From positions 1-64,000 of the IMG/VR virus record IMGVR_UViG_3300034280_001042: a DNA stretch of 64,000 nucleotides; one strand, 5' to 3'. Positions 7,497 through 10,762 of the stretch are shown piece after piece. A program made the translations under genes and the position numbers. A model generated the notes under the pieces. The model had not been told where the DNA came from. It ran no database searches and saw only the letters and a list, made by a program, of their open reading frames with translations. Numbering within the stretch: the first letter of the stretch is position 1; each line of letters starts with the position of its first letter. This DNA is from a virus.

Positions 7497-7691
7497 ATGA
7501 GACTAATAGACAGAATAGCTTTAAATAGAGCTATACATATGCTGTTAGGGTTTATCTTGTCTGTATTAAAGATGTTTGAAAAAAACAATCCAGAAAATAA
7601 ACCAGACGATTCGATTAAACCAAAACCACAAAAAAGAAAAAGACTAAAAGACTTGGTAGACAACATACTACCATGGAGAGAACAAAAATGA
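7497..7691 (+). CDS. Small membrane-associated protein
   Basis: Hydrophobic MLLGFILSVL followed by a Pro/Lys-rich tail. Confidence 0.55.
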   Translation: MRLIDRIALNRAIHMLLGFILSVLKMFEKNNPENKPDDSIKPKPQKRKRLKDLVDNILPWREQK

Positions 7692-7984
7692 ATAAATTAT
7701 TTATTAGTCTATTTTGCATTAGTTTATTGTTTTCTGAAGGAAGGTATTACGGCTCAACAACAGCTTCGGTAACTCTTGCTGGTGGAATTATTAAAGCTAA
7801 GCATTCACAAGAAATTACTACAAAATACAAGAGAAAAGATTGTCCAGTATGTAAGGGTAAAGGATGGTATATGAGTGGAGACAATATCAAAAAAATTGAT
7901 TGCAATTATTGCGAACCAGACAACTCAGCACCACTCTCTTCTAAAATAGACCCTAATTGTAAAACTCATATCAAACGCAACTAG
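7688..7984 (+). CDS. Signal-peptide protein with a DnaJ-type zinc-finger motif
   Basis: Likely start ATG 7688 (ATGA overlap); CPVCKGKG...CNYC. Confidence 0.6.
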   Translation: MNKLFISLFCISLLFSEGRYYGSTTASVTLAGGIIKAKHSQEITTKYKRKDCPVCKGKGWYMSGDNIKKIDCNYCEPDNSAPLSSKIDPNCKTHIKRN

Positions 7985-7996
7985 GATTCTGTTATA

Positions 7997-10762
7997 ATGC
8001 CAACATGTAATAGTGCTAATTATAATCTATCAGCAAACTGGAATGGTGTTGTAGGAAATCTTACTTCTGTTGGTACTAATGGAAGTCCCAGCTATTATGA
8101 TACCTATGACCAGTCAGGATCTTTATACGAATGGAATGATTCTATTATTGGGTCCAATAGAGGATTAAGGGGTGGTAGCTGGACAGACTCTACTGTTAGT
8201 AATTTGTCAAAATCATATAGATTTTCTTTTTTGCCTAACGCTAGATTAACTACTGTTGGATTTAGAATAGCTACAATCAATGATGATCGTCAATACAGCA
8301 CCTTTGTAACAGTAGCTAATATTGCTAATGCAGCTGATAGCACAACATATGGTTCTGTTGGATATACATATAAAATACAAAAATATTTAGTTACTAATAC
8401 TGAGTATACGGAATTTCTAAATGCTATAGGTATGACAGATACCTATGGACTGTATTCAGCAACATATATGGGCACAGAAAGCAGAGGAGGTATTGCTAGA
8501 GGAGGATCCAATGGAAGTTATGTATATGCTGTTAAAACTAACATGGGAAATAAACCAGTATACTATATATCTTGGTTTAATGCTGCTAGATTTGTAAACT
8601 GGTTGCATAATGGAAAACCCAGTGGTGCTCAAAATTCATCCTCAACAGAAGACGGAGCATACACCCTCAATGGAGCTATATCTGGATATAGTTTTACAAA
8701 AAATATCTCAGCTAAATATTGGATTCCAACAGAGAACGAATGGTATAAAGCAGCTTATTATGATCCATCTTTGAATACAGGATCGGGTGGATATTACTCT
8801 TACTCAACACGTAGCAACAGCTCCCCAGATTCCGTAACAGCATCTTCAATCGGAGATGCTATATTGCCAATTGGTTGCATAACACCTACTCCAACAGCAT
8901 CTTTCACACCATCTCCTACAAAAACTCCAACTAATACACCGACCAATACAGCAACAGTAACTGCTTCACAAACTAAAACGCCATCGGCAACTCCTACATT
9001 CACACCAACTCCAACAATAACGGCTTCTGTAACGCCAACTGTTACTAAAACTCAAACAACTACCATTACTCCAACAAGAACCGTTACTCCAACACATACT
9101 GCAACCAGTTCTTTAACTCCTTCAATCACTCCAACAAATACAAAGACTCCAACAGCTACTAAAACTAGTACTCCAACAACCACAGTATCTCCGACACCAT
9201 CCAAGTCTTTATGTGATTCTTTAAAACTAGGACAACTAATTCTAAATGAAGCACTATACAATACAAATGACATTACTATATTATATAACGGATTTGTATT
9301 AAGGGGCATAATTGATGATCCCATATTTAGCTTAAGAGAACCTCCAAATGTAACGCCTACAAGAACTCCCACGGTTACTCCTACAAATACAGCAACTCCT
9401 ACGGTTACTCCTACAAAGACTGCAACCCCAACTCTTACCACCAGTTTAACTAATACTCCAACAGCAACAACAACACCTACTAAGACTCCAACACAAACTC
9501 AAACCAGTACAACAACTCCAACAAACACAATAACCCCAACAGTAACGACGACACAAACTCAAACCACAACACAAACAATAACTCCTACAGTTAGTGTTAC
9601 ATCTACTAGTACCTTAACTCCAACTCCTACTAATACTATTACCTCTACTAATACTGTAACTCCAACAAATACTAATACTCAAACAAATACTGGTTCTCTA
9701 ACACCAACTCCCACACTAACAGCTACTACAACTCCTACTATAACTCCAACAAACACTGAAACTCCTACTATAACTCCAACTAGCACTGTTACTCCAACTA
9801 ATAGTACAACTCCAACTAATACTATTACGCCTACAAATACAGCTAGTCAAACCCCAACAAACACAATAACTCCGACATATACAAGAACACCAACTCCAAC
9901 TCCAACTAATCCAATACCAGCTTCATTCGTAGCAGTTGCTTTTAATTCAGACACTGTTGCAACTTCTAATAATGGAATTTCATGGAATAATTATACTTTA
10001 CCAGGATCTAAATATTGGACAGATATAGAATATGGTAACGGAGTATTCGTATCTTGTCCTTATACAGATGCTGTGGGAGCCAAATCTACCAACATTTCTA
10101 GTTGGACCAACCAATCTTTAGGCTCGGCCTCTAATTGGATCAATATAATTTATGGTAATGGTATTTTTGTTGTTATGTCTCAAACTGGTAATACTCAAAT
10201 TTACTCTAGTACCACAGATACATGGTCTTCATCTTCTTTACCTTCTCTGGGTGTTGGTTCAATATGGAAGTGTGGAGCATATGGTAATGGTGTCTACGTT
10301 GCATTGTCCTCTACAAATAATCTAGCCACGTCAAACAATGGAACCAGTTGGAGTCAATCTACATTACCTTCTACTGGGGACTGGCAAGCTATTACATATG
10401 GCAATAATAAGTTTGTAGCAATTGCAAATAACTCTGATAAAGCCATATATTCCAGTAATGGTACAGATTGGTCTGCTAGTACCCTGCCATCTGTCGCCTA
10501 TTGGTCTAGTATAGCTTATGGTAATGGTAAATATGTGGCAGTTGCAAATGATTTTGGTTATGTCGCAGTTTCTTCTGATGGAGTTAATTGGACTCAATAT
10601 GCTTCTCTGTGGGGCCTATGGCAAGGTATCTCTTATGGAAATAACATATTTGTAACTGTTGGTTTTGGTTCAACTACGCTAACGTCAACAAATGGAATAA
10701 CCTGGACTCAAAGAACAATGGTCGGTCGAGATTGGTCAGCAATTACATTTAGAAACGATTAA
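7997..10762 (+). CDS. Circularly permuted FGE-sulfatase-type (C-type lectin fold) domain, long Thr/Pro stalk and beta-propeller; putative receptor-binding or fibre protein
   Basis: DQSGSLYEW, RGLRGGSW and GFRIA come before KYLVTN, KPVYYISWFNAARFVNWL and PTENEWYKAAY; TPTxT tracts at aa ~295-640; YGNG/SxNGxxW repeats. Confidence 0.8.
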   Translation: MPTCNSANYNLSANWNGVVGNLTSVGTNGSPSYYDTYDQSGSLYEWNDSIIGSNRGLRGGSWTDSTVSNLSKSYRFSFLPNARLTTVGFRIATINDDRQYSTFVTVANIANAADSTTYGSVGYTYKIQKYLVTNTEYTEFLNAIGMTDTYGLYSATYMGTESRGGIARGGSNGSYVYAVKTNMGNKPVYYISWFNAARFVNWLHNGKPSGAQNSSSTEDGAYTLNGAISGYSFTKNISAKYWIPTENEWYKAAYYDPSLNTGSGGYYSYSTRSNSSPDSVTASSIGDAILPIGCITPTPTASFTPSPTKTPTNTPTNTATVTASQTKTPSATPTFTPTPTITASVTPTVTKTQTTTITPTRTVTPTHTATSSLTPSITPTNTKTPTATKTSTPTTTVSPTPSKSLCDSLKLGQLILNEALYNTNDITILYNGFVLRGIIDDPIFSLREPPNVTPTRTPTVTPTNTATPTVTPTKTATPTLTTSLTNTPTATTTPTKTPTQTQTSTTTPTNTITPTVTTTQTQTTTQTITPTVSVTSTSTLTPTPTNTITSTNTVTPTNTNTQTNTGSLTPTPTLTATTTPTITPTNTETPTITPTSTVTPTNSTTPTNTITPTNTASQTPTNTITPTYTRTPTPTPTNPIPASFVAVAFNSDTVATSNNGISWNNYTLPGSKYWTDIEYGNGVFVSCPYTDAVGAKSTNISSWTNQSLGSASNWINIIYGNGIFVVMSQTGNTQIYSSTTDTWSSSSLPSLGVGSIWKCGAYGNGVYVALSSTNNLATSNNGTSWSQSTLPSTGDWQAITYGNNKFVAIANNSDKAIYSSNGTDWSASTLPSVAYWSSIAYGNGKYVAVANDFGYVAVSSDGVNWTQYASLWGLWQGISYGNNIFVTVGFGSTTLTSTNGITWTQRTMVGRDWSAITFRND
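8880..9915 (+). repeat. Coding Thr/Pro low-complexity repeats (two tracts; 30-nt periodic units)
   Basis: AACTCCTACTATAACTCCAAC at 9730-9750 and 9760-9780; ACGGTTACTCCTACAAA at 9371 and 9401. Confidence 0.85.

Follow-up and report, generated by a model that had tools for sequence, protein, structure and literature searches.

A circularly permuted form of the FGE-sulfatase/C-type-lectin-like domain predicted at the head of a stalked phage protein

In phages and bacteria, programmable binding is classically built on the FGE/C-type-lectin (CLec) fold. Its described members include the formylglycine-generating enzyme (FGE) and pFGE (PDB 1y1e, 1y4j, 6muj), EgtB, PvdO, and Treponema denticola variable protein 1 (TvpA; PDB 2y3c), a protein of normal chain order that undergoes diversification by a diversity-generating retroelement (DGR). 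For its activity, FGE requires a copper-binding catalytic pair of cysteines. Here, we describe a protein with a domain of this type encoded in IMG/VR virus record IMGVR_UViG_3300034280_001042, an uncultured phage contig of 91,971 bp with a completeness estimate of 66%, of which bases 1-64000 constitute the window, i.e., the whole 64,000-nucleotide stretch that was analyzed. The gene (positions 7997..10762, + strand) encodes a protein of 921 amino acids (aa), P0001, composed of a head predicted to adopt a permuted FGE/CLec fold, a Pro/Thr linker, a small domain, a second Pro/Thr linker, and a 7-bladed beta-propeller.

When compared to TvpA, the head domain of P0001 belongs to the same fold class (Z 5.8 over 142 residues in VIA, a structure search independent of Foldseek; profile E 2.5e-8), and both proteins lack the FGE catalytic cysteines and carry a variable stretch after GGSW. 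In contrast to TvpA, the two halves of our domain stand in permuted order, and the 92-kb contig bears no reverse transcriptase or template repeat. The Pfam family and the fold are likewise shared with FGE and pFGE, EgtB, and PvdO, although FGE possesses a catalytic cysteine pair that is absent from the permuted domain of P0001, and EgtB has a DinB domain that P0001 does not have. Among proteins of normal order, the closest relatives come from Verrucomicrobiota and Planctomycetota and are about 50% identical. These are single-domain proteins of ~350 aa or arrays of alternating halves (NCNC), e.g., in Chthoniobacter flavus Ellin428 (L038), which share ~40-55% identity with our protein in both halves as well as the motifs NWLHN, EWYKAAYY, NSANY, and TVGTNG. 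In 80 of 80 loci, they run from the N-half to the C-half through a connector of 17-60 aa, and they reside in bacterial genomes and not on phage contigs. Relative to other phage modules of the permuted type, that of P0001 falls into a subgroup that begins its protein and carries a pair formed by Cys4 and a tail cysteine.

Swapped halves and predicted fold of the head domain

The initial annotation had noticed FGE-type motifs in swapped order at the start of the protein and had predicted that an FGE-sulfatase hidden Markov model (HMM) would match twice in that order, and both statements were borne out. The PF03781 (FGE-sulfatase) model, with a profile length of 255, matched with 47.3 bits (cut-off 23.3) in two reversed stretches, aa 14-92 corresponding to profile positions 157-254 and aa 124-257 to positions 36-126, and the genome-wide profile search returned the same swapped result. 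Both halves of the profile are covered, which places the domain in the FGE-sulfatase superfamily, but the canonical chain order of N-half before C-half is not followed, the C-half (aa 14-92) preceding the N-half (aa 124-257). The half that normally ends the fold spans aa 5-92 (8009..8272, +) and carries the motifs NSANY...GN.T.VG...YDQSG...EW...RGGSW...GFR. A short linker between the old C- and N-termini, delimited by comparing linkers among permuted-type proteins, occupies aa 93-99 (8273..8293, +) and is followed by the half that normally begins the fold, aa 100-260 (8294..8776, +), with the motifs FV.V...Y.I.KY.VTN.EY..FLN...KPV...W...ARF.NWLHN...IPTENEWYKAAYY. The domain closes with a tail at aa 261-295 (8777..8881, +; GGYYSYSTRSNSSPDSVTASSIGDAILPIGC), and the permutation break lies just after it. 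Pairwise alignments with EgtB chains gave the same picture, as residues 38-92 of our protein corresponded to chain residues 384-437 and residues 184-211 and 242-292 to residues ~293-338. By sequence, the family profile also matched pFGE, TvpA, CarF, PorK, CalU17, and FGE, with the head region located on the C-terminal ends of those chains. The resulting layout of C-half, short linker, and N-half plus tail (NSANY ... GFR / NWLHN ... EWYKAAYY) is common to P0001 and 172 non-identical modules.

The AlphaFold2 model of residues 1-300, built on a 27-sequence alignment, yielded one compact domain with a mean predicted local distance difference test (pLDDT) score of 83 and a predicted template modelling (pTM) score of 0.88. 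In VIA, each of the top 12 matches was an FGE-fold protein, including CarF (Z 6.6), TvpA (5.8), ToxD (5.4), EgtB (5.3), and PorK (5.0), each aligned to one half in the expected register. For example, residues 98-282 of the model superposed on CarF 2-185 (Z 6.6) and residues 94-287 on TvpA 54-240 (Z 5.8), while the first half was matched by EgtB-IV (model 2-94 on residues 334-442, root-mean-square deviation 2.3 A over 85 residues) and by the variable C-terminal part of Mtd (model 6-92 on residues 266-374). Model residues 94-291 superposed on the N-terminal parts of CarF, TvpA, PorK, PvdO, and pFGE. Each half, therefore, lands where its sequence predicts. With one predicted domain whose halves superpose on the matching parts of FGE-fold proteins, the circular permutation claimed by the initial annotation can be regarded as genuine, and the expectation that the two segments fold together was supported at the level of prediction. 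We conclude with good confidence that residues 5-295 constitute one intact, non-enzymatic FGE-sulfatase/C-type-lectin-like domain, circularly permuted and predicted to pack as a single body. Some features of the model weigh against this conclusion: the pLDDT is ~60 for aa 1-30 and falls below 50 after aa 295, Foldseek found no match for the permuted-domain model in the PDB at E <= 0.001, and the VIA Z-scores are middling (5-6.6). The last point is expected, because a sequential aligner can follow only a single half of a permuted fold in any one alignment.

Relatives, break point, and distribution of the permuted order

The exhaustive search of 1.84 billion cluster representatives returned 8125 proteins at E <= 0.001, of which 2459 were found at E <= 1e-30, and half-domain HMMs were mapped onto the best 150 of these relatives. 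In permuted modules, the gap between the C-half and the N-half was nearly always 3-13 aa (median ~6), and successive modules were separated by tens to hundreds of residues. Normal-order units, which occur singly or as NCNC arrays, had their N-half joined to the C-half by a connector of 17-60 residues. This connector runs in one piece (...EWYKAAYY..GGYW.YPT.S..P......NSANY...) and corresponds to the tail of our domain (aa 248-290) followed directly by its head (aa 5-9). The uninterrupted passage from tail to head in the normal-order proteins places the opening of the chain in the loop just after the aa 261-295 tail. As judged from these alignments, the new ends emerge from the domain at a common point, and aa 93-99 bridge the old ones. 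The proposed permutation would combine this bridge with an opening in a surface loop that normal-order relatives keep uninterrupted.

The connector and the linker also bear on the idea that each segment is a small domain or sub-domain of its own, with no FGE fold re-formed between them, and that the swapped order stems from domain shuffling and not from circular permutation. The missing whole-domain match in Foldseek and the VIA alignments spanning one half at a time would agree with such an arrangement, but sequential aligners are unable to align both halves of a permuted fold together. The 300 residues were modelled as one body with a pTM of 0.88, nearly all permuted modules keep a linker of 3-13 aa between their halves, tail and head form one continuous loop in the normal-order relatives, and there is almost perfect covariation between Cys12, which belongs to the first segment, and Cys279, which belongs to the tail of the other (see below). 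Shuffled separate domains are, on this evidence, very unlikely.

A single permuted domain is also what the same genome contains elsewhere. A paralog of 1172 aa, encoded at G000:C1:84966-88484 on the minus strand, is a tail protein gene product situated directly after a tape-measure-like gene, and residues 6-257 of P0001 align with its residues 740-1025 in the same swapped order (40% identity, E 6e-49). The paralog protein (L005:4967-8485), whose gene lies outside the window, ends in a stretch of ~70 residues with ~18 cysteines (..FLCSSNTDCETCEVCSGGLCVASNDECCLADCCLPGG..), which resembles a knot-like module at the tip of the tail protein.

As a possible flaw, the initial annotation had considered a tandem domain truncated by an assembly error. 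More broadly, the N-terminal segment might be what is left of a tandem FGE array shortened by an incorrect start, a frameshift, or faulty assembly, in which case the protein would contain one and a half domains of the ordinary type. Among the relatives, tandem arrays of normal order (NCNC...) whose C-to-N junctions are short do occur, e.g., in P0011, and the upstream open reading frame (ORF) 7673-7984 (103 aa) is in frame with our gene. This ORF, however, is closed by a stop codon 12 nt before the ATG of the target gene and shows no FGE similarity, so the start of ORF 7997-10762 does not represent a truncation. Moreover, no second C-terminal half follows aa 260, where the chain leads into the Pro/Thr stalk from aa 296, and in independent assemblies the protein starts 4-14 residues ahead of the same NSANY motif. 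In the paralog, the permuted unit is situated in mid-protein between unrelated flanks, and the swapped order is common to ~95 viral loci. A truncated tandem was thus tried and rejected, and we assign it a negligible probability. Regarding the upstream ORF itself, its product is a Cys-rich signal-peptide protein with a hydrophobic segment at the N-terminus and two motifs resembling CxxC, for which weak matches of the DnaJ zinc-finger type (E ~0.2) were the sole similarity.

To examine the distribution of the permuted order, a genome collection and a viral collection were searched with an identical pair of peptide patterns that are blind to order (R[YF]xNWLHN and EWYKAA[YF]). More than 589 relatives were found in the genome collection; the best 80, with Chthoniobacter flavus Ellin428 represented among them, belonged almost entirely to Verrucomicrobiota and Planctomycetota, and all 80 showed the normal order. 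The IMG/VR viral collection contained 273 relatives, and the best 79 loci were all permuted, as were 22 of 22 loci in the first viral scan. The viral loci whose order was determined amount to ~95, all swapped, which, with the paralog of the same genome, answers the proposal of the initial annotation to look for other permuted homologs. Since a ranking by a permuted query favors permuted matches, their absence from the bacterial top 80 is the more telling. A scan of viral contigs that started from a single normal-order protein of bacterial origin (P0256) gave no matches, its patterns being too specific. Within this sampling, the permuted order is confined to phage DNA.

For the phylogenetic analysis, 308 units were re-ordered to a common order, and their layout was classified on whole proteins. 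The order changed 3 times on the resulting tree, against 78-93 times with shuffled labels, and 198 of the 205 normal-order units formed one clade (support 92), the unit of P0001 being placed in the permuted clade. Two small normal-order groups (P0005; L035/L067/P0083) are nested among the permuted units and speak against this simple history; a single origin is therefore likely, not proven. For the nested units (P0005, L035, L067), three explanations can be considered: they may have reverted, they may be misplaced through tree error, or they may be those surviving relatives that stand closest to the ancestor. P0005 comes from NCBI/ENA, on a contig of 188 kb. The permuted lineage is large and, as far as the tree indicates, probably arose once. 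Its modules are N-terminal in only 50 of 172 cases, the others being internal or C-terminal, and many proteins contain two or three permuted modules spread along the chain. The suggestion that the permutation serves to place the binding head at the N-terminal end consequently found no support as a general rule, as is also illustrated by the position of the paralogous module (aa 740-1025 of 1172).

Cysteines at the cut ends

The whole protein contains five cysteines, at positions 4, 294, 406, 687, and 759, and, as described in the initial annotation, exactly two belong to the domain, one at each of the new termini. The Cys4 codon (8006..8008, +) is situated one residue ahead of the conserved head motif N-[ST]-A-N-[YF], and the Cys294 codon (8876..8878, +) encodes the final residue ahead of the Pro/Thr stalk (C-[IV]-[ST]-P-T-P-T). 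The cysteines were compared across the 172 non-identical permuted modules, with the tail cysteine scored by a window over the tail, where the alignment column drifts. Cys12 and Cys279 were both present in 62 modules and both absent from 106, with Cys12 alone in 1 and Cys279 alone in 3 (Fisher p 6e-42, uncorrected for relatedness). This covariation indicates that the head strand and the tail touch. The same positions hold a cysteine pair in a minority of the normal-order proteins of Verrucomicrobiota and Planctomycetota (15 of 233 connectors), where the pair closes a loop of 12-13 residues. In a second arrangement, a tail cysteine was found in 46 of the 49 modules with Cys135. The modules with Cys4 form a third: all 14 have a cysteine directly before the Pro/Thr stalk at 47-60% identity, none has Cys12, Cys279, or Cys135, and 13 stand at the start of their protein. 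Three alternative tethers thus seem to exist for the tail, and P0001 apparently uses the kind typical of N-terminal heads.

The staple between Cys4 and Cys294 put forward in the initial annotation gained comparative support from the tail cysteine of all 14 Cys4 modules and from the Cys12/Cys279 covariation; the position of the two residues stood as described, and the disulfide itself is best stated as probable, tying the cut ends together. Such a bond would form once the protein reaches oxidising water, and it would re-close the cut loop and anchor the free N-terminal end at the stalk base. Several observations count against it. A tail cysteine without an identified partner occurs in 25 modules, and the 14 Cys4 modules may represent one or few clades, in which case the co-occurrence reflects few independent events. 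In addition, phage proteins are made in the reducing cytoplasm. The domain could, then, be permuted while Cys4 and Cys294 are not paired with each other, being instead free, paired with Cys406 or with another subunit, or metal-binding. The poorly modelled termini, the cytoplasmic synthesis of the protein, its odd number of cysteines (five), the association of the tail cysteine with Cys135 in other subfamilies, and the 25 unpartnered tail cysteines would all fit this alternative. Nevertheless, the 14 Cys4 modules without exception keep the tail cysteine at 47-60% identity and lack Cys12, Cys279, and Cys135, Cys406 is not conserved (it is absent from P0056 and P0144), and the covariation of Cys12 with Cys279 sets the head and tail segments side by side. 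End cysteines that are not paired with each other are for these reasons somewhat unlikely, and a Cys4-Cys294 bond remains the reading that we prefer.

Taken with the distribution of the modules, these arrangements allow a broader proposal, which we advance tentatively. A single permutation of a surface domain of Verrucomicrobiota or Planctomycetota may have given rise to a phage-only adhesin module, whose opened loop would have been repeatedly selected for staples that re-close it, namely Cys12-Cys279, derived from the loop disulfide, Cys135 with the tail cysteine, and Cys4 with the tail cysteine in N-terminal heads.

Function, protein layout, and significance

Across 86 permuted modules, variability peaks just after GGSW, at aa 61-80 (8177..8236, +), with 2.9-3.1 bits per column. 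This is the most variable part of the folded domain and lies within the stretch (aa 60-90) for which the initial annotation had proposed a comparison of variability across strains. In CLec proteins of the DGR type, the variable residues occupy the segment equivalent to aa 61-80. It was accordingly considered whether P0001 is a DGR variable protein like TvpA or Mtd, with a hypermutated segment from GGSW to GFR. The fold class shared with TvpA and the equivalent place of the most variable stretch are compatible with this, as is a contig that is only ~66% complete; nevertheless, neither a reverse transcriptase (PF00078) nor a template-like repeat of the DNA of the domain was found on the 92 kb of the record, the sole similar DNA being the diverged paralog. 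The DGR diversification invoked in the initial annotation thus left no sign on this contig, and it is highly improbable for P0001. Enzymatic activity can be addressed from the cysteines, since none occurs between residues 5 and 293, and the catalytic pair after GGSW is therefore missing; the domain is not a formylglycine-generating enzyme. The JGI automatic annotation calls many Cys-poor, permuted, or Planctomycetes–Verrucomicrobia–Chlamydiae (PVC)-type relatives 'formylglycine-generating enzyme required for sulfatase activity', a name that, for the permuted family, is probably a systematic mis-annotation. The role that we propose is that of a ligand-binding head on a flexible stalk. In the proposed mechanism, the permuted module serves as the N-terminal head of a protein with the layout head, Pro/Thr stalk, and propeller, and it would bind a surface ligand, probably a glycan, mainly via the variable stretch after GGSW.

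The stalk that the initial annotation placed after the head is real, although it is interrupted by a segment of 51 aa that is not rich in Pro and Thr. Linker 1 (aa 296-401; 8882..9199, +) consists of Thr and Pro at 62% and linker 2 (aa 453-645; 9353..9931, +) at 65%. The small segment between them (aa 402-452; 9200..9352, +; ..LGQLILNEALYNTNDITILYNGFVLRG..) had no match in Pfam; a segment of this type (IGQLI..IY..D..ILY.GF.L.G) takes the same place between Pro/Thr linkers in P0056, P0121, P0138, and P0144. The protein ends in the 7-bladed beta-propeller (aa 646-921; 9932..10759, +), composed of W...YGNG.FV repeats and assigned by AlphaFold2 and Foldseek. Its model reached a pLDDT of 96.7 and a pTM of 0.92, and its Foldseek matches were 7-bladed and Kelch/Ycf48 propellers with TM up to 0.77, the Pfam matches being weak. 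The propeller family is very large, with more than 3000 proteins at E <= 1e-5, and many of these relatives are proteins of ~1500 aa with several propellers each, encoded on contigs of 180-280 kb, perhaps of jumbo phages. When the whole protein was compared by tblastn to 50,697 GenBank phage records, the propeller was matched and the FGE part never was.

The window has a low G+C content of ~33% and contains replication genes of phage type, including those for ribonucleotide reductase, a DnaB-like helicase, and a split DNA polymerase. ORF 7997-10762 is flanked by a membrane-protein/peptidase cassette on one side and a glycosyltransferase island on the other. The tail module of the genome, in which the tape-measure-like gene is followed by the paralog gene, is situated beyond the window, whereas our gene sits elsewhere, and this location outside the tail module is a point against the binding role proposed for its product. 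Just upstream, a 684-aa ORF (397-2451 of the window) with pentapeptide-repeat regions at both ends (Pfam E 2e-24) belongs to the same block of large, possibly surface-exposed proteins.

Regarding the novelty of the permuted form, no model for it was found in Pfam, NCBIfam, or PHROG, and no description of a permuted FGE/CLec domain was found in the literature searched; a review on jumbo phages mentions the fold solely in its normal form. The variant seems, then, to be undescribed, and the elements contributed here are the mapped break point, the tree of order changes, and the covarying cysteines in their three arrangements. The finding does not change the field. It concerns a topological variant that has no model of its own and whose relatives are labelled as an enzyme by annotation pipelines, and that is abundant, with thousands of 50%-identity clusters and, in many cases, multiple copies in one phage. 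The annotation of receptor-binding proteins in large uncultured phages would benefit from a dedicated model, and the alternative cysteine pairs at the cut ends provide a directly testable case of how a permuted domain is stabilized. The module may further point to members of Verrucomicrobiota or Planctomycetota as hosts. If a single permutation was indeed followed by repeated stapling, the family would represent a natural series on the re-stabilization of a permuted fold and, at the same time, a marker for phages of the poorly cultured Verrucomicrobiota and Planctomycetota.

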